Source: a virus. From it: a DNA stretch of 41,874 bases. Location: the IMG/VR virus record IMGVR_UViG_3300009285_000025. One strand, given 5' to 3'. Of the stretch, positions 4,026 to 39,621 are shown piece by piece. A model generated the notes under the pieces. It did not search any database. It was not told the origin of the DNA and was given only the letters and a program-made list of their open reading frames with translations. The position numbers were made by a program, and so were the translations under genes. Numbering within the stretch: position 1 is the first letter of the stretch; every line of letters begins with the position of its first letter.

Positions 4026-7000
4026 TGCTTCTGTTAGTGCCCATCAACCGCCCAAATCGTTCCCCCGCAGATATATCTTCAGGCGTAGTAGCCATCATTA
4101 CACTTCTACTTATACCTGGCATTACGCCTTCTATTAAAGCTTGTAATCGCAATGGCGACATCCCAACCTTGCCCGCCAACTCTCTAACCCACATTGGTGT
4201 CCATTCCCTATACTGCCGTTCTGCGGGTTTTCGCTGTAATCCGTAAGGAACTATTTCTCTTCCAGTAAATAATTTCTTATTTACGAGTTGTTCTATCAGA
4301 GGCACACTCCAGCCAGGTATAGGTGTAGGAATGCCAATATCTTCAGTAAGTTTTGCCTGCGTGCCTGGAATTTGCCCTAATATCGTATCTGCTATACGGA
4401 GCGCAGCTTTAGGGTCTCTATCATAAATATAGTCAAGTATATATGTTGGAATTGTGCCAAACATAGCACCAATCTCAAACAATTTAGGAATAAGTATAAC
4501 TCTATCCCCAATATCAATCGTATAGTATCTTTGGCGGGCTATATTATTACGCCACGTAGGATTATCCCTATTAAGATACCATTCAATTACTGAAGGTGTA
4601 GTTATAAATGTAGCAGTAAGTAATGCAAACTTGCGAGGGTTTTCACCTATAAGGCGATATGCTCTGGACGCTCCCTGAACACCTGCGCCAAAAAATGGTA
4701 TCAACGTTCCTATCTGCCGAGAAATCATACCCTCTCTTGCAAAATTAACGGTTACCTCTCTTGCCATTTGTGCGGCTCGCAGAGGGTTTATGCCCTTCTC
4801 TCTTGCCCTAACAAACTCATTAAACCTTGATAATAATTCCCCCTCTTTAACTAACTGCTCATAAAAATTAGCTAATGATTTTATCCCATATACTTTAGCG
4901 GGCTTCTTAAACTGAGCCCCTACCATTTTTTCTAATTCTTCACGTGAAGTAAAATCGTAAAATGTGCTACCCTTCATCCCTAATAACTCAAACTCATCAA
5001 GATACTTCATTACTTTAGGGTCTTTTATAATACGCTTAAACGTCGTTACAGCTGGAGAAATCAAATTACTGCCCGTCTTGGATGCAAACATCTGCATTGG
5101 AACATCCCTTGCTATATTCCGCACCGCCCAAAATGCAGGATTTCTTGTTATAGACCATTGCAATGCTTTAGTAAGAACATTAGAAAATTTAAGAACAGCG
5201 TTAAGCTGAATAGGAGTAAATGCCCTTAAACTTTGTGCTAATTCCTTACCAACTATATCATTAGGATTTAGAGCAAAAGTTACTGGGGTGCCGTCTACTT
5301 TAGTTCTGATTAGATATTGCTCTGCCTCTTGGGACTTTCTCTCCATTTTACCTGTAATTCTTCTTGCCCATCCCTGCCTAACCGCTTCCTCACCAATAAG
5401 CGACTTCATTGTATTATTCTCTATTAGCTTATTTATAATGTAACGTTTACGGGATATAGATGTAAATATATTGGCAATCTCCGTTTGTCCTGTTATACCT
5501 TTCAACTCATCTACAAATTTTAGTGAAACGTCATCTTCAAGCCCCTCAAATACCCTCTCAAGCGGAACATACCATTCGGGCTTATTCAGATTGCCCAACG
5601 TATCCTTATTGATTATTTTGGCGTCATATAAGTCCTGTATCATTGCCCTCTCATTTTTGCGAATCTCACGCAGATATGGTAAAATCTGTTGTGCCTCGCC
5701 ATTTGCCTTCATTTCTTCTATAGTATTTAATGCTCGAGCTAACTCCTCTCTTACCGCTTTTTGTTTGAGCAACAACCTCTCATCCGCTGGCGTTTTCTTT
5801 AATTGTTCCTCTAACGACTTCAGCAATTCTGGGTTACGTTCCTGCATTGTCATTGCCTTTGCAAAGGCATCTGTCTTTACAAATAGCTTCTTTTTTTCAA
5901 GCCCCCTTATGATTTGTCCAAACGGCATACCGCCAATACGTTTAATATTGCCCGTTCTCATCAGTTCCGCATAAGAAATAAGCCCCTTCTCAAACTCCAT
6001 TGCAGTAGTCCCAGCTACCTGCTTGGCAGTATAGAACCTTTCTGTAATCTTTTTACTTATATCACGAGGTAGTAATTTATCAAAATAGTGCAAGTTGTTT
6101 GTAGTATTAAATCTGAATTTATCCCACCCACTACTTTTTATAACAGGTATTTTCGCTTTACCTACACTTTCAATCGGCTGTATTGACAGCCCCACGCCAG
6201 CCATTTCTGGCTCTGGACGAAGAACATCCTTACCTTCTATTTTACCTATCACTGGCTCACCTTTTAACTCTGGTATCTTTATGGATGGTTTAGTTGGCAG
6301 TTTAGTAGCGGGAGGAAGAGGGAGCTTCACTTCACCCTTTAATCTATTATGCAATTTTGTTAAATATTCAGATGTTACATCAGTAAATTTAGCCCCATCC
6401 CACCGTTTTACAGAAACTATGTTATTAGCGTTGGCTGGCTTTGTAATAGTTTCACCTTTCGCTTCTCCTATATTATTAAATTCAACTAAAAACTTACCTT
6501 TTGAGGAAGTTATATACTGTGTAGCACTCCCAGGAGTAGGAGCAAAGCTATTAGCTCTCCCAGCAACCCCTCCTTTATATACAATCTCTCCCGAAATAAC
6601 CTTATCAAGTTCTTTCTGTCCCATTCCACGCCAAGCCACCCCCTTTACAGATTGTAACTTTGGAGTATTGAAATAATTGGCATTTGGGGAAAACCCTGAC
6701 TGCTGACTTACCTTACTATCTATAAATTCCTTTAATCCCCCAGAAACCTCTCCGATAGGTTCGGTAGGAATAGGAGGGGGTTGTCCCTCAACTTTCGCCG
6801 TAGTAACCTCTTTAGGTAGTGGAATTCCCTCTTGAGCAGTAATGGGCTTAATTTCTTTTATTATTTCCGCTATCCGTTCTGGTAATGGCTTTGTTTCAGA
6901 TATTATCTGCTCTTTAGGTATTGGGATAGCTTCAGGTTTCTCTATCGGCTTAAATTCTGCCGTAGGTATTTCTCGTGCCATTGGACGACCAGCAACACCT

Positions 7001-21459: not shown

Positions 21460-22146
21460 TTAGTAATCTACTCCTAACTGAAAATCATAGGGCGATTCCC
21501 ACCGAGAATTACCGTTACGTAAATTCCTCGCCATTCCCCTTATATGCTCAATATGTGGAGACACCCTACTTGCCAATTTACTGCCCACAACTCCTTGACG
21601 CCATCTCTTCTGCGGAAACAATTTTGCCATACATAAATAACGCAACGCATCACACAAATGGTCGTCCACTTTTCTTATCTTTTCTCTCTGCCTATCATCC
21701 TTTACAACGCCCCTTACGTCCCTACGTCTATAATTTCTCATCTGGCGGAGTAGTTTATCATTCCCCTCACCATCAGACAAAATAAGAAGCTGTGGATTAT
21801 TCCACTCAAGACCTACGGGTTTATCCTTATCAATACGCATTAAAGACGAAACATAATTATTCCCCGCATCTACCGAGTTGTCACCATCTATACAATAAAT
21901 ACCATTTGCAATATATTCTAATTTTACCTGACTTCCTGGGTCTATAACATAGGTTGGAAGCACACCATCGATTGCCTGATAAGATAAAAATTCCTTCGAG
22001 TGTTCAGCTACAATCTTATTCTCCGCTAAATAAGAACGATAAACAATCATATTCCCATAAAAATCCACTGCTCCCCAAACCGCAGCAGTAAAATACCCCG
22101 TATCGATAGCAACCCCATATTCCCATTCTGGATTTAGCACTATCAC
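21460..22146 (-). CDS. terL: Terminase large subunit, C-terminal nuclease domain, as a separate ORF (228 aa).
   Basis: It has RNaseH-like nuclease motifs VAIDTGYFTAAVWGAVD and DDHLCDALRYL. The GTG start at 22146 overlaps the upstream TGA (ATGTGA) and lies 5 nt after AAGGAGGAGGTG. Confidence 0.8.
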   Translation of the reverse strand: MIVLNPEWEYGVAIDTGYFTAAVWGAVDFYGNMIVYRSYLAENKIVAEHSKEFLSYQAIDGVLPTYVIDPGSQVKLEYIANGIYCIDGDNSVDAGNNYVSSLMRIDKDKPVGLEWNNPQLLILSDGEGNDKLLRQMRNYRRRDVRGVVKDDRQREKIRKVDDHLCDALRYLCMAKLFPQKRWRQGVVGSKLASRVSPHIEHIRGMARNLRNGNSRWESPYDFQLGVDY

Positions 22147-22997
22147 ATCGCCACCTCCTCCTTTGCTATCTGGTAAAACTCATCTACCTTTTTAGAGGAA
22201 ATTAAAATATTGTCAAGTTCTTGATATATAATCTTACTTCGTGTCGCATACTTGCCGTAAATTCTCGCCTGAATCTCATCATCACCCAATGTCCGCATAA
22301 ACCTTTTAATCTGCACATCCGTAAGTAGTGGATTATCCCATATCTCTGGACTGAATATCTGAGAATCAGTATCAAATTCTACTGTCCCCTGCTTATCCCA
22401 TATATCCGTATATGTCCAGTCCATCCCTTCAATCGGAACAATCGTCATCCACAGACACCCATCCGTTGCAACAAGGCGAGCAACTATTTCCGTAAATATA
22501 TCTCTTGGACATTCCTCATCAACCCAAGCCCAATCAATATTCGCACCCGCAAATGCCTCCCTGCCGCTCTCTGCCGACTTGAATCGGACAATACAGCCAT
22601 CTGTAGTATGTAATGTCCTATACCTTTTCTCATAAGAAGCAATTTTATCTTTAGGAAAGAAATCAAAAAAGCGTCTCTGGGCGACTTCTAATCCTTTAGA
22701 GAAATCAGTAGAAACAACCCACCCCTCATTAGGCATACGGATATTCTTGCGATACGGATGAGTACCAAGAGAAAACCGTCCACCTTCAACAGCTGCCCCT
22801 GTGGTTTTGCCTACCTTATTAGAACCAATTACATATCTAAACGGCTTCTGACACTGATGAAACGCTTTTGCCCATTCAAACGGCTCGTAAAAATCTATTC
22901 CCCTTGCATCTTTACGGCTTTTCAGTTCCGTCAGAAGTTCCGTTATCTCCTGAAGTTGCGGATTCCTTTTCGCCTTTTGCATCAGCATTCTCCACAA
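22143..22997 (-). CDS. terL: Terminase large subunit, N-terminal ATPase domain, as a separate ORF (284 aa).
   Basis: It has Walker A GSNKVGKT, Walker B IDWAWVDEE, a coupling motif TIVP and the domain-end motif RIYGKY. Confidence 0.85.
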   Translation of the reverse strand: MWRMLMQKAKRNPQLQEITELLTELKSRKDARGIDFYEPFEWAKAFHQCQKPFRYVIGSNKVGKTTGAAVEGGRFSLGTHPYRKNIRMPNEGWVVSTDFSKGLEVAQRRFFDFFPKDKIASYEKRYRTLHTTDGCIVRFKSAESGREAFAGANIDWAWVDEECPRDIFTEIVARLVATDGCLWMTIVPIEGMDWTYTDIWDKQGTVEFDTDSQIFSPEIWDNPLLTDVQIKRFMRTLGDDEIQARIYGKYATRSKIIYQELDNILISSKKVDEFYQIAKEEVAM

Positions 22998-24370: not shown

Positions 24371-24413
24371 ACAAAGTATGTGAAACTATTTTTAATTATT
24401 TATACGATTTTTG

Positions 24414-24442
24414 TTGACATAACTATAAACAGGCAGTATTAT
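24414..24442 (+). promoter_or_regulatory. Sigma-70-type early promoter.
   Basis: TTGACA (24414..24419), a 17-nt spacer, then TATTAT (24437..24442). Confidence 0.6.
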
Positions 24443-24449
24443 TCCTTTT

Positions 24450-24562
24450 ATGAAAACGCTTTATGAAAAGAATAATTAAAATTGCAGGGGGTAGGGCTAC
24501 ATCTCTCGCTATGTCGAAAGGCACGGCGGGGCGTTTTCATCCTACCCTCTGCTGTTTTTTTT
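24450..24562 (+). promoter_or_regulatory. Leader RNA element E1: interleaved helices A/A' and B/B' ending in a U-tract (terminator/attenuator).
   Basis: A 24450..24459 (atgaaaacgc) pairs with A' 24531..24540 (gcgttttcat). B 24484..24495 (gcagggggtagg) pairs with B' 24541..24552 (cctaccctctgc), 12 bp with one G-U. A T8 run follows at 24555..24562. Confidence 0.6.
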
Positions 24563-24583
24563 ATAGAGGGGGGGGCAAGTAAT

Positions 24584-25846
24584 ATGGTAGGCATAACGGC
24601 AAGGCAAAAACTTTTAGACGGGGATAATTTTATCGGGAACTATATCAGATATGCGAGCCAAAAAACCAGCGCAAAGGGTGTCTATCATTTAGCGATGGCA
24701 AAGTTATCCATAGCTACAATTCTCAATCATAATGTATATGTTGATGTAGGGACTCGGATATATCCGAACTTATGGATTTTGTTACTCGGCGCCTCTCGGA
24801 ATACGATGAAGACAACATCCTTAAACATAATGCGATATATTACTAATCGTATTCATAGACCTTGCACACCATACGAGCGGGACAAAGGGTTGTGCGATAT
24901 AAATGATGTAGGGTTCTGCACTAAATCGCACACGTTCTCGGCGCCAGCGTCATTTAGTTATGAAAAGATATTAGATGTATTGGCGGGAAGACCTTCGGCT
25001 TTATTTACATACAGCGAATTCAAATCGCTGATGGCAATGATTAACAATAATTATAATACAGAGCTTATGTCGTTTTTGACGGATATGTTTGACTGCCCGC
25101 CGATAATGGACAGAAGCACCCAAAAGGGCGAATTTGTCATAAAAGAACCGTATATCAATATAGGCGGATGTTCAACGATAGTATGGTTCACAGATTCTAT
25201 AAAAGAAGAGCATATCTCAGGCGGATTCCTCGCACGATTTATGTTTGTAATCGTAACCGAAAAGGTGCATAAGAAGAGCATCCACGACCTGACCAGTCCT
25301 TCCCAAAATGAAGAAAATAAGGTTGTTCACCAGCTCGAGGCAATTAAAGAGTTCGCTAAAACTGCCGGGCAGATGAGATTTTCTAAAGAAGCCGAACTCC
25401 TCCACCGCAAGTTTGAATTAGAGACGTTTGACAATACGCCGCCGATATTGGATGCCGTGATAGACCAGTATTGCACCTCTTGTATCAAGCTGGCTATCAT
25501 TTACGCCGCTAACGGGTTACGAGAGGAAATTTCTGCTGACGATATGGAGAATGCGATTAACGATACAAAAAGCGGTATCGTTGATTTATGCTCATTATTC
25601 TCTACGGGTAAAATTCAATTTACCGATTACGGCAAGAAATCACAAAAGATAGTCGAACTCATAGAACGTAAGGGCGGTAAGCTCTCAAGACGGGAACTCT
25701 TGCAATCATCCAATCTAAAGCTACAAGAATTTACACCTATCATAGATACTCTAATCCAAAGTGGCAGAATAGCACAGGTGCAGGACGGCAAACGTGGAGC
25801 ATATTCCTATACCCTTATGGAGAAATCATTATGCGAAAAGAGTTAG
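24584..25846 (+). CDS. DUF3987-like replication protein (helicase/initiator-like) with a C-terminal winged-helix (420 aa).
   Basis: RIYPNLWILLLGASRNTMKTTS, INIGGCSTIVWF and GGFLARFMFV fit my recollection of the DUF3987 pattern. The C-terminal ELIERKGGKLSRRELLQSS...GRIAQVQDGKRGAYSY looks like a wHTH. The start was trimmed from the track TTG at 24482 to the ATG at 24584, which follows GAGGGGGG. Confidence 0.55.
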   Translation: MVGITARQKLLDGDNFIGNYIRYASQKTSAKGVYHLAMAKLSIATILNHNVYVDVGTRIYPNLWILLLGASRNTMKTTSLNIMRYITNRIHRPCTPYERDKGLCDINDVGFCTKSHTFSAPASFSYEKILDVLAGRPSALFTYSEFKSLMAMINNNYNTELMSFLTDMFDCPPIMDRSTQKGEFVIKEPYINIGGCSTIVWFTDSIKEEHISGGFLARFMFVIVTEKVHKKSIHDLTSPSQNEENKVVHQLEAIKEFAKTAGQMRFSKEAELLHRKFELETFDNTPPILDAVIDQYCTSCIKLAIIYAANGLREEISADDMENAINDTKSGIVDLCSLFSTGKIQFTDYGKKSQKIVELIERKGGKLSRRELLQSSNLKLQEFTPIIDTLIQSGRIAQVQDGKRGAYSYTLMEKSLCEKS

Positions 25847-26187: not shown

Positions 26188-26391
26188 TAACTACCCCCCT
26201 ACCTATACCATAAAACCCTTAAATTTCAATAATTTAATAATTTATATACTACTACTACTACTACTAACTACACTACTACTTATACTATAACTATATATAT
26301 GATAGATACTTATGCGTAGTTTTACACATTACTACACTCCTTATGTAGTTACTACTTATACCCCTTATGTAGTAATGTAGTAAGTGTAGTA
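26176..26391. repeat. Iteron-like arrays: TGTAGTA repeats facing a (TAC)n/TACTAC array around an AT-rich core.
   Basis: TGTAGTA occurs at 26176, 26183, 26368, 26376 and 26385, with variants at 26344 and others. (TAC)5 at 26247..26261 continues as taactacactactac. TACTACA occurs at 26330. CCTTATGTAGT is present twice (26339, 26363). The core reads ctatatatatgatagat. Confidence 0.7.
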
Positions 26392-26818
26392 ACTTTAATT
26401 TTGCAAATTTCACAGATTCAGACCTGCAAACTCTGGCTATCTATCCTAAATACCGCCCCCCTTTATTCTAATCACTTTTCAAAATCTTAGGCACAGATGC
26501 AGAAGAGAGGGGGTATTGTCCCAATGACGCCACCCCCATAGGTAACCCTGTATGGTGTTACAGCGTTACAGTTATGCGGTATTAACATATATGGTAGTGT
26601 AGGTAGGTAGAAGTAGATAGGTGATGTTTCTTTACTGCCTATACGTTGGGGTTATATAGGGGCAAGGTAAGTAAAGAATGGCATAAAGGTAACTTCTCAT
26701 ATGGCATATAGGCAAGATTGCATACCTCGAGGTGTTTATCTCTACCTCTCTATCAACCGCCGTCCCTGTCTTTAGTGCGTTAGTTACTGCATTAAATACT
26801 ATCAAGGTCAAGGTATGA

Positions 26819-26840
26819 TATGTTGATAATATGTTGATAA
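26819..26840. repeat. 11-bp tandem repeat tatgttgataa x2, plus a partial third copy.
   Basis: Read directly: tatgttgataa tatgttgataa aatgtttaac. Confidence 0.8.
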
Positions 26841-26913
26841 AATGTTTAACTATCAAGTAATCACTGTTGCCCCCTGCCTATTCGCTATTTGCCTACGTTT
26901 GCATTATGCCTAT

Positions 26914-26933
26914 ATCCCTATCTATCCCTATCA
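26914..26933. repeat. 10-bp tandem repeat atccctatc(t/a) x2.
   Basis: Read directly. Confidence 0.8.
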
Positions 26934-27110
26934 CCTCATAATAACTATTGACATTTACGCCACTGCGTGGAGTTGCTCTACATTCAGCGACAGGGTCTCA
27001 AGTGTAGAATTACTTCCCTTTATCCATAGTTTGCGTCTGGCGGGTATCTACAAGCAATGTTAATTTCACGAATTTAAGGGTATGCCCTAAATCCTTGTAA
27101 ATTAAAGGGT

Positions 27111-27130
27111 ATAGGCAAATATAGGCAAAA
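27111..27130. repeat. 10-bp tandem repeat ataggcaaa(t/a) x2.
   Basis: Read directly. It shares the ATAGGCA core with five other dispersed copies in the region. Confidence 0.8.
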
Positions 27131-27200
27131 TCCTTGCATTATCAATAGATTAAAAGACATCACTACTTGGCAGTTGATGTATCATTCCTTGAAAAAGATT

Positions 27201-27250
27201 TTGCCTCTCACTTGCCTCTCACTTGCCTCTCACTTGCCTCTCACTTGCCT
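27201..27250. repeat. Perfect 11-bp tandem repeat ttgcctctcac x4.5.
   Basis: Copies lie at 27201, 27212, 27223 and 27234, with a partial copy at 27245..27250. TTGCCT is the reverse complement of the AGGCAA core at 27111..27130. Confidence 0.9.
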
Positions 27251-27750
27251 ATGCTTTGTCTCTATACTGCGTGCGGTCTGGTTGAAGTATCCTTCTTTTA
27301 TACCACTAATGGTATAAAATGTGTCAGGCAGTATTACTATTACTACCTATGGTATGAGTTAAGTATTTTTGCGTATTAGTTAAGTGAGATAGGGTAAGAG
27401 GGGACAGAGTTGTATAGTAGGTATGCAGTTTGGGTTCGGGTAATTTTTACAATTACTTTTTTTTGAGGTTTATAGAAGGTTCTACAGGTTTGGCAGTTAC
27501 AATCTTTTTGGTATGGATAAGACATATTGATATATTAGTATTTAGTTTTAATTTTGTCAAGTTAGCAGGTAAAAATAAATTCCCCTATATTATGGTTTTC
27601 TATACTACATATAGATAAAAACAATTCGTGTGTTCATACTAATAGTATATGGTATCTATATATTGTGTGATTAAAATTATATTATACTATATATGGTAGT
27701 TTTGTCAGTCAAACTATTTTAACTATTTTTACGAATTATGCAAATTATAT

Positions 27751-27778
27751 TTGTAATATCGCCGAGATGTGATATAGT
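27751..27778 (+). promoter_or_regulatory. Sigma-70-type promoter candidate with an extended -10.
   Basis: TTGTAA (27751..27756), a 16-nt spacer ending in TGA, then TATAGT (27773..27778). Confidence 0.4.
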
Positions 27779-27794
27779 CCTTATAGATTTAATA

Positions 27795-27906
27795 TGATAC
27801 GCATAGGAAGAATAATAATAAAGAGTAGAGCGGGAACGGGCATTTCTGTTCGTGGATGTATGTCTGCGGATACTATGCGTATCAACCGTCCCCGCTCTTA
27901 TTTTTT
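27795..27906 (+). promoter_or_regulatory. Leader RNA element E2, with the same interleaved A-B-A'-B'-U-tract architecture as E1.
   Basis: A 27795..27806 (tgatacgcatag) pairs perfectly with A' 27873..27884 (ctatgcgtatca). B 27827..27839 (agagcgggaacgg) pairs with B' 27886..27898 (ccgtccccgctct) with one mismatch. The sequence ttattttttat follows. Confidence 0.6.
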
Positions 27907-27919
27907 ATGGAGGTAGGCT

Positions 27920-28174
27920 ATGGAGTATATTACTAACTGCGTTTCGGGGAATGCTGAAGACCTTCAAAAGATGGTTGATTCTGCAAAGAGTATTACATAT
28001 AGAACCTTTACTAAATATGTAAAACCCTTCGTATTAAATGAGCTGTTCCCACAGTATGTAAAGGGCATACTGCATATAAAGGATGACTATTCAGTAAGTT
28101 TCTTCAAGGGTCGGTATCAGGGCAGACATTGTGTCTATGTTGAGCAAAGCGGGATAGAGTATATTTTTTGTTAG
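27920..28174 (+). CDS. Hypothetical 84-aa protein.
   Basis: ORF track, with GGAGG 7 nt upstream. It is the first gene after E2. Confidence 0.6.
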   Translation: MEYITNCVSGNAEDLQKMVDSAKSITYRTFTKYVKPFVLNELFPQYVKGILHIKDDYSVSFFKGRYQGRHCVYVEQSGIEYIFC

Positions 28175-28187
28175 AAAGGGGAATGAT

Positions 28188-28418
28188 ATGGTAAAGGTAA
28201 AATATGGTAAGAGGGAGCTTATACAGGCAGTGTTCGACAGCAAGAGCAAAGCTATAAGACGGGCGAAGTTCGTCAAGGGTTATGTAGTTATAGTCAAAAG
28301 TAATGGTAAATTTTATGTCGAAACGTCGCTTCCGTTGATAAGGGATTTTGAGCAAATAGTTTATAGGCGAGATAGAAGAAAGGATATAGAATATGACAAT
28401 AGATTATTGCGAAGTTGA
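28188..28418 (+). CDS. Hypothetical 76-aa protein.
   Basis: ORF track, with a TTAGAAAGGGG RBS cassette upstream. Confidence 0.6.
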   Translation: MVKVKYGKRELIQAVFDSKSKAIRRAKFVKGYVVIVKSNGKFYVETSLPLIRDFEQIVYRRDRRKDIEYDNRLLRS

Positions 28419-28695
28419 AGGATGTTGTCAGCGGTCAGCGTTGCGGTGGATAGACCATTATATTTGCTGGGGGCATTGGCTACTTTATGCTAACAATAAA
28501 CTCGATTTAAGAAAGGAATTTAACTTACCTGCGATAGTTAGAAGTGATAACCTCACGGGTCAGGATGAGGGCTTGGCGGATAGCACGGGGATGGGTAACA
28601 TTGAGGCAGATAAAGAGGGTGGAAGCGACACTCTAACTTCGCCCTCCACTGCCTCTGTAAATTGGGTTGCAGTTAAAGAAACCTTACTATTTTAG
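28393..28695 (+). CDS. Hypothetical 100-aa protein with a Cys/His-rich N-terminus.
   Basis: ORF track, with AAAGGA upstream. It contains CEVEGCC...HYICWGHW. Confidence 0.5.
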   Translation: MTIDYCEVEGCCQRSALRWIDHYICWGHWLLYANNKLDLRKEFNLPAIVRSDNLTGQDEGLADSTGMGNIEADKEGGSDTLTSPSTASVNWVAVKETLLF

Positions 28696-28707
28696 AAAGG
28701 AGAATAT

Positions 28708-29211
28708 ATGGTAAATGAAGTTATAGACATTTTAGCGTTAGCGTTAAATGAAGCGACACCATTTGATAACTCGCAAAAACAGGGACTGATAGTAGCTGAC
28801 GAAAAGGACGCTACATATTTTTCAGGATTGCTTGCTATGTGGCAAAACGAGATAGAGCGGAGGAAGGAGCAATGCCGAGAATATGTCGCACACGCCGAGC
28901 GGACTTTAGAGCGATTGCAATATCTTTGCAGTAATCAATTAGAGGATTGGACAGCAAAGGAATTGACAACCGTAAAAGGTAAAAGCATTAAGTTAGCAAG
29001 TGCTACAATAGGATTTAGGACGCAGAAAGATAAGTTAGTTATAACCGATAAGGACACATATATTAAATGGTGTGATGATAACAAGGTGGCGGGCTATGTA
29101 GTAGAGACCCGCACAATCATAACCCCTGCTAATGAGTATTATGAGAAGGAGGGCAAAGTGCCTGATGGTGTAAATGTTGAGAAGGGTTTTGAGAAATTTT
29201 ATGTCAAATAG
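28708..29211 (+). CDS. gam: Mu Gam-like / Gp157-like host-nuclease inhibitor (167 aa).
   Basis: An N-terminal coiled coil is followed by KGKSIKLASATIGFRTQKDKLVITD and a C-terminal VPDGVNVEKGFEKFYV, as in Mu Gam. It lies directly upstream of recT. Confidence 0.5.
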   Translation: MVNEVIDILALALNEATPFDNSQKQGLIVADEKDATYFSGLLAMWQNEIERRKEQCREYVAHAERTLERLQYLCSNQLEDWTAKELTTVKGKSIKLASATIGFRTQKDKLVITDKDTYIKWCDDNKVAGYVVETRTIITPANEYYEKEGKVPDGVNVEKGFEKFYVK

Positions 29212-29225
29212 AGAAAGGAGATAAT

Positions 29226-30281
29226 ATGACAAATGAAGTAGCAGTTCAAAATGAATGGACAGCCGAACAGATTAACTTAATCAAGTCAATGGTATGCAAA
29301 GGCGCTACTGATGACGAGTTTAAGCTGTTTTTATACTTCGGCAAAAAAACGGGGCTTGACCCACTGGCAAAGCAATATCATTTTGTAAAAAGGTGGAATA
29401 ATCAAACGCAGAAGGAAGAGGGGACGATACAGACGGGTATAGACGGACTTCGGCTGGTCGCTGAACGGACAAATAAATATGCGGGTAGTAGTGAACCGAT
29501 TTATGTTATAGACGAGAAAACACACCTGCCTATTTCGGCAACCGTAAAAGTTAGAAAGTTATTAGCAGGAACTGTTCACGAAGTGGGAGCTATTGCATTT
29601 TTTAGTGAGTATGTTCAAAAGAAAAAGGACGGAACGGCTATGTTTCTTTGGGCTAAAATGCCATTCCTAATGATAGGAAAATGTGCAGAGGCGCTTGCAC
29701 TACGCAAGGCATTCCCCGATGACTTGTCCAGCATATATGCAGACGAAGAAATGCAACAAGCAGATTCGATTAAAAATGTGGAAGCAGAGATAGTAGATAA
29801 AACGACTATGCCAAAGATTGACCAGATAAAAAATATGACATCTCCTGCTCCCGCAACTACTTCTATTGACGAGAAGCTATATGATAATGTGGCAGTATAT
29901 ATCAAAGGATTATCAATAAAAGAAGCGGATGACTTTAAGGATTGGATTATGCGAAAATTCAAGATAGGATTGCCTATGCTTGAAAATAACCAGCTACAAC
30001 TTGTTACTCAAGAGATAGAAAGGCGAGAGTTAGCTGTGGGTAAGCCATCCGAAGACGCTGATGATGTAGAGCCAAAAGATATGATACCTCTATCAGCAGG
30101 GCAGGCACAATCCTTGCACAAGCAGGCGAGCAGAAAGGGATTGCCTAATGCCGAATTATGTATAATGTTAGGGCTTGACAGCGAAGTTCAGCATCTAACG
30201 GGTATGCCTGTAAGCAAGACAAAACATAAAGAGACGCTTATAAAAATTGGAGCGATGGCTGATAAGAAGGAGGGGAAATAG
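29226..30281 (+). CDS. recT: RecT/Bet-family single-strand annealing protein (351 aa).
   Basis: Motifs LIKSMVCKGATDDEFKLFLYFGKKTGLDPLAKQYHFV, GIDGLRLVAERT and MIGKCAEALALRKAFPD match RecT/Bet. It sits between the gam-like gene and ssb. Confidence 0.85.
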   Translation: MTNEVAVQNEWTAEQINLIKSMVCKGATDDEFKLFLYFGKKTGLDPLAKQYHFVKRWNNQTQKEEGTIQTGIDGLRLVAERTNKYAGSSEPIYVIDEKTHLPISATVKVRKLLAGTVHEVGAIAFFSEYVQKKKDGTAMFLWAKMPFLMIGKCAEALALRKAFPDDLSSIYADEEMQQADSIKNVEAEIVDKTTMPKIDQIKNMTSPAPATTSIDEKLYDNVAVYIKGLSIKEADDFKDWIMRKFKIGLPMLENNQLQLVTQEIERRELAVGKPSEDADDVEPKDMIPLSAGQAQSLHKQASRKGLPNAELCIMLGLDSEVQHLTGMPVSKTKHKETLIKIGAMADKKEGK

Positions 30282-31025: not shown

Positions 31026-31112
31026 TTGTGAACGGAGAGGGCGGAGTCGTGCGTGATGACTGCGATTCGCCCTCTGATATTTTTAATTAGATTAGAAAGG
31101 AAGGTGATAAAA

Positions 31113-33544: not shown

Positions 33545-34123
33545 ATGAATAAAATAAAAACAATTTTTGAAAGGGACTGGAATGGGAATAGAGCGTGTAT
33601 TGATAAATATGTCGAGGGATTTGACTCTTTACAATTAAATGAGGCGGTGGCTACGGAGAAATTAGATGGAACTAATATACGAGTTACTGTTAGAAACCAC
33701 ATTGTAGTTAGGATTGAAAAAAGAAAGAACCCAGATAGAATACAAAAACATAGAGGTATAGAAGAGCCGTGGTATATTGATGCTTCGGAGAGTGATTCTT
33801 CGGATAAGTGGATTTTTGACGCAGTTCAGAATACTAATTTATCTCAAATTCCCGATGGTGAATGGAGTGCGGAGGCAGTGGGTAAAAATATACAAGGCAA
33901 TCCGTTAAATCTTGACAAAAATATTGCAGTATTCTTTTCATTAGGGCAATGTCCTATATTTGAAGATGCACCGATTACATACGAGGCATTGAGAGAGTGG
34001 CTTCCAAGTCAAAAAAGTAAATATGGGAATAACTGTTTGATTGAAGGTATTGTGTGGCATTGCAAAAATGGGGAGATGTTTAAGATAAAGACGAAGGATT
34101 TTAAGGGTGATGGGAGGAGATGA
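33545..34123 (+). CDS. Minimal ATP-dependent RNA (or DNA) ligase-like nucleotidyltransferase (192 aa).
   Basis: It has covalent nucleotidyltransferase motif I ATEKLDGTN, motif IV EGIVWH and motif V FKIKTKDF. Its size fits a stand-alone adenylyltransferase domain. Confidence 0.6.
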   Translation: MNKIKTIFERDWNGNRACIDKYVEGFDSLQLNEAVATEKLDGTNIRVTVRNHIVVRIEKRKNPDRIQKHRGIEEPWYIDASESDSSDKWIFDAVQNTNLSQIPDGEWSAEAVGKNIQGNPLNLDKNIAVFFSLGQCPIFEDAPITYEALREWLPSQKSKYGNNCLIEGIVWHCKNGEMFKIKTKDFKGDGRR

Positions 34124-34230
34124 ATAATTTCTTTACTTGGCACTATTGGAAGCCCGCAGTGATTTATATTATCTTGGGTATGATAGGCATAGTGTTAGGT
34201 TACGGGATTGTATATTTAATTTTTAGATAG
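34120..34230 (+). CDS. 36-aa single-pass membrane peptide (not in the ORF track).
   Basis: The ATG forms an ATGA overlap with the ligase stop. It translates MNNFFTWHYWKPAVIYIILGMIGIVLGYGIVYLIFR. Confidence 0.4.
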   Translation: MNNFFTWHYWKPAVIYIILGMIGIVLGYGIVYLIFR

Positions 34231-34246
34231 AAAGGAGGGGTGGAAG

Positions 34247-34732
34247 GTGATAGAAATTAAAGCACCTAATGAAATGGGGGAAGGTAGCAAGTCAATATTT
34301 CTTGCTGGCAGTATCGAGATGGGCAATGCGGAGAAATGGCAAGATAAAGTAGTGTCCCTGATGCGTGATACTAATTGGACGATTCTAAACCCCAGAAGAG
34401 ATGACTGGGATTCGTCTTGGAGTCAGAGTATCAATAATAAAAGGTTCGTTGAGCAGGTAGAATGGGAATTGGCAGGATTGGAGAAAGCAAATATAATACT
34501 TATGTATTTTGATAAGAATACTGAGTCCCCTATTACACTGTTAGAATTAGGACTTCATGCTCGTTCTCATAAGTTAATTGTAGTATGCCCCGAAGGATTT
34601 TGGCGTAAAGGTAATGTAGATGTTGTATGCAATATGTATAATATCCTACAAGTATCTACTCTCGAAGAAGTAGTGAATAATCTCAAATGTGAGGAGTTCA
34701 TCTGCCCTTGCCCTATAGAAATTAAACTTTAA
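34247..34732 (+). CDS. Nucleoside 2-deoxyribosyltransferase-like protein (161 aa).
   Basis: IFLAGSIEMG, ILNPRRDDWDSSW, VEWELAGLEKANIILMYF and SPITLLELGLHA fit the Nuc_deoxyri_tr2-type pattern. The GTG start lies 8 nt after GGAGG. Confidence 0.5.
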   Translation: MIEIKAPNEMGEGSKSIFLAGSIEMGNAEKWQDKVVSLMRDTNWTILNPRRDDWDSSWSQSINNKRFVEQVEWELAGLEKANIILMYFDKNTESPITLLELGLHARSHKLIVVCPEGFWRKGNVDVVCNMYNILQVSTLEEVVNNLKCEEFICPCPIEIKL

Positions 34733-37770: not shown

Positions 37771-38367
37771 ATGAATAGACGATATATATATAGCAACGAT
37801 TGGAAGGATAAATGGAACAAGTTAATAATACTGGGCAGGGAAATTGTAGCACGTCTTCTGAAGCAATTCAGAATCCGTTCCTATCGTTGCACCCTGCCCT
37901 TTATTTGTTTCGGAGAAGATAGGAGAATGAGCAAAAATAAAAGAAGGGCTTATTTAATGGGGACATATAAAAAGTTTTTTGATTATGAATGTATGAATCC
38001 TTTATGTAAGAATGGACTAAATCCAGAAGTCCATCATATTACGCCTCTACAGGCAGGTGGTGTGGATGCCGTATGTAATTATATTTTGTTATGTCAAGAT
38101 TGCCACGATATTAAAGGTCTCCATAGTGAGTGGACAAAATGGGAATTTAAGCTAACTTATTGGAAATGCCAAGCCGAAATAAATAAATATGGAAGAGCTT
38201 TAGATACTTTACTTTATGTAAAAGGTGGTATAAAAGATAGTCAAACATTACAACATAGAATAGATGAGTTAAAGCAGGGCATTAACATTGAAATGGATGA
38301 AAATGAAGCCCTTGCCTCCACCTCTATAGGAAATAGGGGCATTATTCGAGGTTTATCGGGGCTGTAG
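37771..38367 (+). CDS. HNH endonuclease (198 aa; the start could also be 37927).
   Basis: It contains CMNPLCKNGLNPEVHHITPLQAGGVDAVCNYILLCQDCHDIKGLH. The ATG at 37771 follows GAAGGAAAA; the track start at 37726 is a GTG. Confidence 0.75.
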   Translation: MNRRYIYSNDWKDKWNKLIILGREIVARLLKQFRIRSYRCTLPFICFGEDRRMSKNKRRAYLMGTYKKFFDYECMNPLCKNGLNPEVHHITPLQAGGVDAVCNYILLCQDCHDIKGLHSEWTKWEFKLTYWKCQAEINKYGRALDTLLYVKGGIKDSQTLQHRIDELKQGINIEMDENEALASTSIGNRGIIRGLSGL

Positions 38368-38768: not shown

Positions 38769-39425
38769 CTATGATGCAATGAGTTGAGGTCTGCTTTTAA
38801 TAACTTCCTTTATTCTTTGTAATGCTTTTATGTGTAGTTGGCATATTCTCGATTCGGACAACTGTAACATAACCCCTATTTTTTTAAGCGTATGGGATTG
38901 AATATAACGAAGCTCGATTATCTGCCCCTCTCGTTTTGGTAGATATTTGCACATATAATCTATCAACTCCGAAGGGAAGTAATCATCTTTGACTGACGGC
39001 TCTGTCGTATAGCCCTGACGGTCATCATTATTGATATTACGAGAGAAATATAATTGCTCTCTTGTTATACTTACTTTACGCATTATCGTATCATCACTTG
39101 GCAAGCGATTATGCTCTAATGTATATCCTTGAGAAAATGTATCTATCCGTTTTTGCGTATTAAATACATTTCTACTTTTTAGTAATCGTCTTAAGTAATC
39201 ATAAATCGCACCTCGTATCCGTATCCTTGCATATATGCCAAACTTTACATTTCTTGCTGTATCGAACTTATCAATAGCGTCAAGTAATCCCTTACTGCCC
39301 TCTTGTATAAGGTCATCTATCTGCACAGATTGGGGGACGGCTTTAGCAAAATGCGTTGCTTCATTTATCACAAGCGGTAGGTATTCTTTGACTATTGTAT
39401 CATGCTTCAAGATACTGCATTTCAT
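38769..39425 (-). CDS. FliA/sigma-28-like (group 3) sigma-70 family sigma factor (218 aa).
   Basis: Region 2 reads EYLPLV...IDDLIQEGSKGLLDAIDKFD...FGIYARIRIRGAIYDYLRR. Region 4 reads LPKREGQIIELRYIQSHTLKKIGVMLQLSESRICQLHIKALQRIK. Confidence 0.85.
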   Translation of the reverse strand: MKCSILKHDTIVKEYLPLVINEATHFAKAVPQSVQIDDLIQEGSKGLLDAIDKFDTARNVKFGIYARIRIRGAIYDYLRRLLKSRNVFNTQKRIDTFSQGYTLEHNRLPSDDTIMRKVSITREQLYFSRNINNDDRQGYTTEPSVKDDYFPSELIDYMCKYLPKREGQIIELRYIQSHTLKKIGVMLQLSESRICQLHIKALQRIKEVIKSRPQLIAS

Positions 39426-39524: not shown

Positions 39525-39621
39525 GGTATCCAGCTATTAAGCGAAAATAAAAGGTTGGTGAATATCCGACCTAATATTTAAGTCCTCACAATCTTTAGCT
39601 GGATACCGTGAGGACTTTTTT
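39525..39621 (+). promoter_or_regulatory. Leader RNA element E3, with the same interleaved A-B-A'-B'-U-tract architecture as E1 and E2.
   Basis: A 39525..39536 (ggtatccagcta) pairs perfectly with A' 39596..39607 (tagctggatacc). B 39580..39589 (aagtcctcac) pairs with B' 39608..39617 (gtgaggactt). A T6 run lies at 39616..39621. There is an inner hairpin at 39552..39572. Confidence 0.6.

Follow-up and report, generated by a model that had tools for sequence, protein, structure and literature searches.

The DNA analysed here, hereafter the window, is the whole 41,874-nt virus record IMGVR_UViG_3300009285_000025 of IMG/VR, a segment of a tailed-phage genome with structural genes on the minus strand and early genes on the plus strand. 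The minus-strand structural block encodes the small and large terminase, the portal, and a podovirus-type major capsid protein. One plus-strand early operon encodes Gam-like, RecT, and SSB proteins, and directly before it, as the final feature of a 1.7-kb non-coding region with repeats and iterons, lies the element E2. From its sequence, E2 appears to be a structured 5′ leader RNA of ~120 nt (~27786–27908, plus strand) transcribed from a putative host-type promoter. It had been proposed in a first-pass annotation as the leader of a long early or middle operon, and the Gam-like, RecT, and SSB functions encoded downstream agree with this. In our view, E2 is very likely a genuine leader RNA, conserved and acting in cis, and the leader design probably controls the entry of transcription into the operon. 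The features of E2 are as follows.

27751–27778, plus strand: candidate sigma-70-type promoter, found by a consensus scan (9/12 matches, with TG)
27794–27916, plus strand: leader open reading frame (ORF) of 40 codons running through A, B, A′, and B′, with its AUG at 27794, 1 nt before A, and UAG at 27914–27916
27795–27806, plus strand: A, the 5′ strand of the clamp helix, TGATACGCATAG, from the sequence and an inverted-repeat search
27807–27826, plus strand: L1, an A-rich 20-nt linker, GAAGAAUAAUAAUAAAGAGU (60% A, 20% G)
27827–27839, plus strand: B, the 5′ arm of a terminator-like hairpin, from the sequence and the inverted-repeat search
27840–27872, plus strand: L2, with the local hairpin H (27847–27857 paired with 27862–27872)
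27873–27884, plus strand: A′, the 3′ strand of the clamp, within the B/B′ loop, CTATGCGTATCA, from the sequence and the inverted-repeat search
27886–27898, plus strand: B′, partner of B and 3′ arm of the terminator-like hairpin, with 1 nt between it and A′
27899–27908, plus strand: U-tract UAUUUUUUAU (tail TATTTTTTAT), from the sequence
27909–27922, plus strand: Shine-Dalgarno sequence (SD) GGAGG (27909–27913) and ATG 27920, at which the first gene of the Gam/RecT/SSB operon starts

The geometry proposed for E2 in the first-pass annotation was confirmed by the sequence together with the repeat search. A and A′ form a perfect helix, paired at 12 of 12 positions with a duplex energy of −16.9 kcal/mol, and B and B′ pair at 12 of 13 positions with a duplex energy of −21.1 kcal/mol, the sole mismatch being A·C. 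A single nucleotide (27885) separates A′ from B′, and the U-tract, the GGAGG, and ATG 27920 follow. With the strand order A, B, A′, B′, the two helices cross each other in an H-type pseudoknot topology and have no nucleotides in common. The 3′ arm of H adjoins A′ without a gap, and the 3′ portion of L1 is able to pair with the U-tract. B/B′ has the GC-rich stem and the directly following U-tract of an intrinsic terminator, and 27899–27908 is putatively the site of termination, whereas its loop of 46 nt (20–63 nt over the nine elements described below) departs from the ~3–8 nt of canonical terminators. As for the promoter that had been suggested upstream of A, the consensus scan lists it as well, and it remains a consensus match: a −35 element TTGTAA (27751–27756), a 16-nt spacer, and an extended −10 element composed of TG (27770–27771), an a, and TATAGT (27773–27778), from which transcription is predicted to start at ~27785–27786.

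E2 had also been described as a second copy of the design of another leader, E1, and the topology of E1 was found to be identical. The window contains a third copy, E3, which is new.

24414–24562, plus strand: E1, with the same architecture as E2, 5′ of a gene for a DUF3987 primase/helicase-like protein
37793–37911, plus strand: E3, found by a scan of the window, 5′ of an HNH endonuclease gene

E1 has a near-consensus promoter, TTGACA-17-TATTAT (24414–24442), with an AUG at the predicted +1 (24450), followed by A (24451–24462), B (24484–24496), A′ (24528–24539), and B′ (24540–24552); the A′–B′ gap is 0 and U8 comes next. In E3, A (37793–37800, extendable to 8 + 4 + 4 bp), B (37833–37840), A′ (37883–37890), and B′ (37892–37899) leave an A′–B′ gap of 1 nt, the tail after B′ is UUUAUUUGUUU, and an SD (AGGAG) and ATG 37927 follow. 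The helix sequences of E1, E2, and E3 are mutually unrelated and the architecture is kept. A composite scan called a large-loop, terminator-like B/B′ with a T-tract plus a perfect A/A′ whose 3′ strand ends 0–2 nt before B′. It returned three elements on the plus strand of the window and none on the minus strand, and 100 dinucleotide shuffles of the window gave a mean of 0.02 elements with a maximum of 1; the thresholds were fixed after E3 had been seen, and E1 and E2 clear them by a wide margin. Ordinary short-loop terminators are present at operon ends (39580–39617, plus strand; 40524–40493, minus strand), and the interleaved design is therefore specific to leaders. No extra copies of A or B able to act in trans were found in the window, and a 1-mismatch match at 34181 was rejected as a trans partner because it lies inside a small hydrophobic ORF.

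The promoter regions of E1 and E2 align in phase throughout. A ~30-nt AT-rich motif is common to both, 5′ of the promoters (24383–24413 and 27712–27741; AAACTATTTT..TACGA..), and could be a UP element or a regulator site. Relative to E1, the E2 promoter region has two ~8-nt insertions, one of which duplicates TATAG between the −10 element and the AUG. There are hints in these sequences that promoter and leader were duplicated as a single module. In the case of E3, public gene calls put the start of the HNH gene at ATG 37771 (198 amino acids), in frame and with an SD, so that E3 falls within an annotated coding sequence; this 5′ extension was rejected as coding, its codon score of −0.16 being non-coding-like.

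The recurrence of the design was followed in relatives of the phage. In close relatives (the ANAN16-1 ENA assemblies and JGI 3300025167, 3300025117, and 3300025289), E2 and E3 are 100% identical. The nearest other DUF3987 proteins found by an exhaustive protein search are 26–36% identical, and their contigs were fetched and scanned. In the strict scan of relatives, seven hits (four non-redundant) were obtained; the four closest loci account for every one of them, and each is on the gene strand, with none on the opposite strand. Shuffled versions of the closest loci gave a mean of 0.0 in the strict scan, and 735 kb of more distant phage loci contained no element by the same scan. A relaxed structural scan was at chance overall (32 hits on the plus strand versus 29 on the minus strand), and only strict hits and the strongest relaxed hits were counted as elements. 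With L092 and L017b contributed by the relaxed scan, there are six elements in four distant relatives (L011a, L011b, L013, which is identical to L014, L017a, L017b, and L092), which makes a total of nine elements in five phage lineages. L011a and L092 are located directly 5′ of a DUF3987 gene, as is E1, and L011b is located 5′ of a Gam/ERF operon, as is E2. The helix sequences of the relatives are unrelated among themselves and to those of the window. The first-pass annotation had argued for selection on structure rather than a simple sequence duplication, and the recurrence of the design with other sequences at equivalent places in distant relatives bears this out.

The elements have no counterpart in Rfam: the Rfam 15 covariance models gave zero matches at gathering score in the whole window, a search at E ≤ 10 over 27400–28100 gave one chance-level match (S774, 20.6 bits against a threshold of 48), and no match was obtained in L011, L013, L017, and L092. 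Megablast of 27000–29500 against cultured phages gave no match, and the relatives retrieved by tblastn of the DUF3987 proteins were no more than 21–27% identical (Pseudomonas, Arthrobacter, and other phages), with no close cultured phage among them. In an index of 5.8 billion proteins, only near-identical relatives were found for the 84-amino-acid protein of the first gene, the Gam-like protein, and the DUF3987 protein. Scans of IMG/VR with the 84-amino-acid protein and RecT found nothing, and the same was true of a scan of genome contigs. A metagenome scan gave one irrelevant locus (L006), a gene inside an operon without a leader, and no closer relative was recovered for either the L011 or the L013 lineage.

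Two of the relatives show further signals around their leaders. In L013, a conventional hairpin (GGGCAGGCAGCUUGCUUGCCC) with a U-rich run (4078–4136) comes right after the interleaved element and before ATG 4137, and the L013 leader therefore has tandem terminator-like signals. L011 has two copies of TTTTTATTTGACAAGCTA, in which a promoter is fused to a terminator tail, at a distance of ~520 nt from each other within 1160–1790. L011b is driven by the first of them, and no gene is called in the ~470 nt after L011b.

Comparison of the nine elements revealed what is kept in the absence of sequence similarity. The A′–B′ gap is 0–2 nt in all nine. L1 is A-rich and G-poor and spans 16–50 nt (16–25 nt in six of them), while B and B′ form 8–14 GC-rich base pairs with energies of −17 to −26 kcal/mol. 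L2 bears one or two local hairpins, the 3′ arm of which ends 0–6 nt short of A′. A T-rich tail and then an SD follow, and the start codon lies 8–45 nt further on in eight of the nine, the exception being L011b. In E1, E2, L011a, L011b, L017a, L017b, and L092, promoters of the TTGACA type put A (in L017, an additional strand X) at +1 or no more than ~10 nt from it. In each of the two L017 leaders (4280–4392 and 706–801), three helices cross one another, and their strands follow the order X, A, B, X′, A′, B′. X/X′ is a perfect helix of 12–13 bp, X is the very 5′ end of the transcript, and X′ takes the place of the local hairpin of L2; the 3′ strands are contiguous, with gaps of 0–5 nt. It is doubtful that all three helices coexist, because they cross one another with linkers of 2–6 nt. 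The general rule, as read from these sequences, appears to be that the last ~40 nt before the U-tract are contiguous 3′ strands whose partners lie upstream in the same order. A conserved loop, box, or core common to the nine elements was not seen.

The base pairs themselves indicate the nucleic acid and the strand. The 18 helices of the nine elements contain 180 Watson–Crick, 23 G·U, and 2 A·C pairs and no other mismatch. The excess of G·U over A·C argues for RNA on the plus strand, since DNA inverted repeats would lack such an asymmetry. Plus-strand folds of −44.6, −41.5, and −36.7 kcal/mol were obtained versus −26.1, −29.5, and −31.7 kcal/mol for the minus strand, i.e., they are more stable by 5–18 kcal/mol. 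E2 alone cannot discriminate between the strands, as its only mismatch, A·C, is G·U on the other strand; the plus strand was assigned because the promoter, the U-tract, the SD, and the whole family point there.

Compensatory changes were obtained for E1 from the relative L005, in which E2 is identical and E1 is diverged (84% identity by MAFFT and 74% by BLAST, with indels). The −35 and −10 hexamers of E1 are kept in L005, and roughly every second nucleotide of the spacer is changed. In A/A′, one A–U pair has become G–C, two G·U pairs have become Watson–Crick pairs, and one pair is broken. In B/B′, one U–A pair has become C–G, two changes are one-sided, and the terminal pair is broken. With the window and L005 taken together, 96% of the cells are paired in E1, compared with 48–59% when the partners are slid. 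Changes that preserve pairing are thus found in both helices, which again supports selection on structure. The diverged stretch (1–190 of L005 versus 24410–24600 of the window) is the only one in an otherwise 96–100% identical relative; as only the E1 promoter and leader have diverged, this module is either mosaic or unusually fast-evolving. Coding of E1 through the frame of TTG-24482 was ruled out, as the indels in L005 break that frame.

Folding calculations were employed to follow the order in which the helices would form. When the transcript ends at A′, A/A′ is part of the minimum free energy (MFE) structure in eight of the nine elements, and L017b has X/X′ instead. The addition of B′ and the U-tract flips the nested optimum to B/B′ in the window elements with a margin of 7–16 kcal/mol; the forced A/A′ fold of E1 amounts to −24.6 kcal/mol. 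For E2, the nested MFE fold consists of B/B′ extended by pairs between the A-tract and the U-tract together with the inner hairpin, with z = −3.2 to −4.4. In the relatives, the clamp state and the B/B′ state are nearly isoenergetic (−39.1 versus −39.4 kcal/mol in L011a). A rough estimate for the pseudoknot was made by adding the B/B′ stacking energy and a penalty of 9.6 kcal/mol to the energy of the clamp state, and the value lies below both nested states in seven of nine elements. The linkers L1 and L2 are predicted to be long enough for A/A′ and B/B′ to coexist, and H, A, and B could stack coaxially on the continuous 3′ strand.

The leader ORFs bring the ribosome into consideration. The ORF of E2 ends 3 nt before the main ATG. 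An ATG is located 1–7 nt before A in six of the nine elements and exactly 1 nt before A in E1, E2, and L011b; the binomial P value of this enrichment is ~0.002 and is post hoc. If the predicted start sites are correct, E1 and L011b would be leaderless. Two kinds of ORF are present. Mini-ORFs are found in E1 (9 codons) and L092 (13 codons), both of which stop 4–7 nt before B, and in L011b (6 codons), and ORFs that span the whole element are found in E2 (40 codons), L013 (56 codons, with the stop 5 nt before the main ATG), and L017a (51 codons). The codon score of the E2 leader ORF is 0.084, where coding chunks score 0.36 ± 0.16 and off-frame sequence −0.52 ± 0.27. The start, stop, and length of the E1 mini-ORF are kept in L005.

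The reading that we prefer, tentatively and with somewhat less than even confidence, is that E2 is a promoter-proximal attenuator made up of a clamp and a pseudoknot terminator and relieved by a ribosome, in which both termination and relief are what we infer from the layout. The clamp A/A′ would form during transcription once A′ emerges. B′ would emerge right behind A′ and pair with B inside the clamped loop, giving a compact pseudoknot in which B/B′ and the U-tract act as a promoter-proximal intrinsic terminator, so that the default would be a stop before the first gene. Read-through would occur if A is single-stranded while A′ and B′ emerge. The likeliest agent would be a ribosome started at the AUG by the 5′ edge of A (27794) and trailing the polymerase through B/B′, as in pyrBI; since the AUG of E2 opens a 40-codon ORF across the element, such a ribosome may relieve termination. 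Loaded before A′ is made, it would hold the clamp open and mask or melt B/B′. The clamp, once formed, would bury the leader AUG, and the decision would therefore be made only once.

Several observations weigh against this reading. The 46-nt loop is atypical of a terminator, and a consensus terminator scan makes no call at E2. The U-tract is weak in L017b and L092. The scans by which the elements were found demanded T-rich tails; in a scan without this demand, the strong promoter-proximal hits in the clade still all have T-rich tails, and the background is high in GC-rich loci (28 hits on the plus versus 35 on the minus strand in 735 kb). E2 is invariant in the five relatives sampled, and its helices therefore give no covariation of their own, while the covariation of E1 comes from two sequences only and is suggestive. 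In L013 and L092, the clamp state is the nested MFE structure, and it overlaps or sequesters part of B/B′, which is easier to reconcile with a clamp acting against the terminator than with a clamp formed alongside it. As regards the ribosome in particular, an AUG at A is missing from three of the nine elements, no SD precedes the leader AUG of E2 while the main genes have strong ones, the codon score of the E2 ORF falls between the coding and off-frame values, and the mini-peptide of E1 is not conserved, with three of nine residues changed in L005.

The main rival, which we consider unlikely, treats the clamp as a non-overlapping antiterminator. Lying 0–2 nt from B′ and closing B inside a loop, it would hinder the completion of B/B′ sterically or topologically, so that naked RNA would be read through and termination would ensue when A is masked or missing. 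The closest precedent, of which this would be an interleaved version, is tug-of-war (TOW) antitermination, in which an RNA structure 0–1 nt upstream of a terminator suppresses it by competing for the RNA exit channel, longer spacers restore termination, simple hairpins have little or no effect on stable terminators, and the pseudoknot of T4/T2 gene 32 mRNA served as a blocking structure (Bushhouse, Fu and Lucks, bioRxiv 10.64898/2026.06.17.733018). As in TOW, where the mechanism is sequence-independent and the length of the spacer is critical, the structure in E2 shares no nucleotides with the terminator, and the spacer of 1 nt (0–2 nt in nine of nine elements) agrees with the short spacers that are the hallmark of TOW. 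The clamp is predicted to form before B′ exists, and without shared nucleotides a clamp of 12 bp would presumably not be displaced by branch migration in time. The near isoenergetic nested A- and B-states of the relatives also suit an opposing clamp, as do L013, where the clamp reaches 3 bp into B′, and L092, where the clamp state pairs the 3′ half of B. Nevertheless, with B/B′ at −17 to −26 kcal/mol the small effect of simple hairpins on stable terminators speaks against this view. The geometry differs as well. In TOW, the entire structure precedes a compact terminator and touches its base on the side of the 5′ arm, whereas in E2 the helices are interleaved, with A at the 5′ end of the transcript and A′ inside the terminator loop, so that the clamp borders on the apical end, where the 3′ arm begins. 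Natural TOW examples carry a ZTP aptamer, whereas E2 has no match to an aptamer family and no conserved sequence. Moreover, the linkers permit coexistence, the rough pseudoknot energy is the lowest in seven of nine elements, and in E2, L013, and L017a a ribosome translating the spanning ORF would open the clamp as well as the terminator, contrary to what an antiterminator clamp requires.

It is rather improbable that no regulated termination takes place at all, the pseudoknot being a stabiliser or translation module at the mRNA 5′ end, or a terminated RNA of ~115 nt being itself the product. As a stabiliser, it would bury the 5′ end against 5′-dependent RNases and offer a U-rich standby site before the SD. 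The paired 5′ end of all elements, the predicted pseudoknot as the most stable state, the weak U-tracts of L017b and L092 with an SD immediately after them, and the ~470 nt without a called gene past L011b are in line with one or the other version. On the other hand, a simple 5′ hairpin would suffice for mRNA stabilisation, the GC-rich stem with U8 (E1) or U2AU6 (E2) is the 3′ half of a canonical terminator, and eight of nine elements are located 8–45 nt 5′ of a gene start.

Relief of the terminator by a protein antiterminator in the style of lambda Q or N/nut, with the clamp compacting the loop, protecting the 5′ end, or insulating, is improbable to a further degree. In the lambdoid pR′–tR′ region (6S RNA), a constitutive promoter is followed within ~100–200 nt by an intrinsic terminator that is overcome by Q. 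E2 likewise would have a promoter-proximal intrinsic terminator to be overcome for operon expression, each early transcription unit examined opens with a promoter, a short leader, and a terminator-like site, and a FliA/WhiG-like sigma factor is encoded by the phage itself, along with many early proteins without an assigned function. The terminator of E2 is, however, large-looped and crossed by a 5′ clamp, and the interleaved module is found at several early units and not at one late unit. No Q, N, or other antiterminator family was found among the 25 proteins scanned, which are part of the proteome. The nine elements share no loop or box for sequence-specific recognition such as N/nut and Q/qut have, and a protein antiterminator leaves unexplained why A′ pairs with the 5′ end of the transcript and why an AUG is present there. 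Finally, that the repeats act as DNA (operator half-sites or cruciforms) or arose by chance in AT-rich non-coding DNA, as the location of E2 bordering a 1.7-kb region rich in repeats and iterons could suggest, is highly improbable in view of the strand-specific RNA constraint (23 G·U versus 2 A·C), the 0.02 elements per shuffled window, and the restriction to the gene strand, and a common DNA-binding specificity is impossible because the helix sequences differ in every element.

The ribosome-relieved attenuator that we prefer resembles the pyrBI and trp attenuators in that a leader ORF near the 5′ end spans the terminator (E2, L013, L017a) or stops before its 5′ arm (E1, L092) and the terminator directly precedes the first gene. 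It differs from them in that E2 has no alternative helix sharing terminator nucleotides, no regulatory codons, and no leader SD, the AUG is absent in three of nine elements, and the 5′ clamp has no counterpart there. In trp, T-box, and riboswitch switches, the alternative helix overlaps a terminator arm; there is no overlap in E2, and it is partial only in L013 (3 nt) and L092. A phage mRNA that begins with two crossing helices, with an A/U-rich stretch and an SD after them, is also known from the T4/T2 gene 32 pseudoknot. In contrast, the helices here are 12–14 bp versus 4–7 bp, the second stem has a terminator-like U-tract, and the short linker (0–2 nt) lies between the two 3′ strands instead of connecting stem 2 (5′ strand) with stem 1 (3′ strand). 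In the c4 RNA of P1, a′ and b′ pair with a2 and b2 in trans after processing, and translation of ant/icd is blocked. There, too, blocks in the same order pair block by block to give crossing helices, whereas the pairing here is in cis, within ~110 nt, and beside a U-tract. E2 is attenuator-like, yet it fails the defining features of each specific family considered, and full-text literature searches found no description of this interleaved layout.

A few features of the surrounding genome were recorded. The non-coding region before E2 (26190–27790) contains TACTAC-type repeats at 26245–26390, GGCAAA/TATAGGCA repeats at 26880–27135, and five 11-nt iterons TTGCCTCTCAC at 27190–27263, together with several strong promoter-like sites on the minus strand (e.g., 27708–27681, 11/12 matches); judging from its sequence, it is probably a replication origin and control region. 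The FliA/WhiG-like sigma factor (38769–39425, minus strand) has Sigma70_r2/r4 domains and scores 139 bits with NCBIfam FliA_WhiG, under the family cut-off, and it presumably drives middle or late transcription. The large terminase (21460–22997, minus strand) seems split or poorly matched: the ORF 21460–22146 matches a PHROG terminase profile at its C-terminal part only (477–605 of 807, E = 3.6e-4), and the adjacent ORF 22143–22997 has no annotated function. Between two early genes, a GC-rich hairpin GAGGGCG...CGCCCTC with a loop of 20–24 nt is followed by TGATATTTTTAATT (31036–31090); it has no clamp and resembles an internal partial terminator. The early operon also encodes, at 33545–34732, an RLIG1-family RNA ligase (PF17720) and a nucleoside 2-deoxyribosyltransferase-like protein (PF15891), with a small hydrophobic ORF (34121–34230) between the two genes. 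No tRNA-like or tmRNA genes were found in the window.

To our knowledge, attenuators have been thought to require alternative helices that compete for the same nucleotides, and the first exception, TOW, was described only in 2026. The nine natural elements keep a distinct, non-overlapping layout in spite of completely diverged sequences. It is conceivable, although we consider it doubtful, that they represent a new class of co-transcriptional RNA switch, in which a 5′-end clamp in the terminator loop gates termination with zero shared nucleotides at all early promoters of an uncultivated phage clade. If true, the engineered TOW principle would have an interleaved counterpart in nature, with gating by topology or sterics and by access to the 5′ end. 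Were the clamp to gate termination, it would provide a simple, sequence-free design rule for RNA switches, and E2 is short enough for direct testing. It would also show how early transcription in these phages is linked to what happens at the transcript 5′ end, for example to ribosome loading. Even if E2 is an ordinary constitutive attenuator, it would belong to a structured RNA class that is absent from Rfam and marks the early promoters of this clade.

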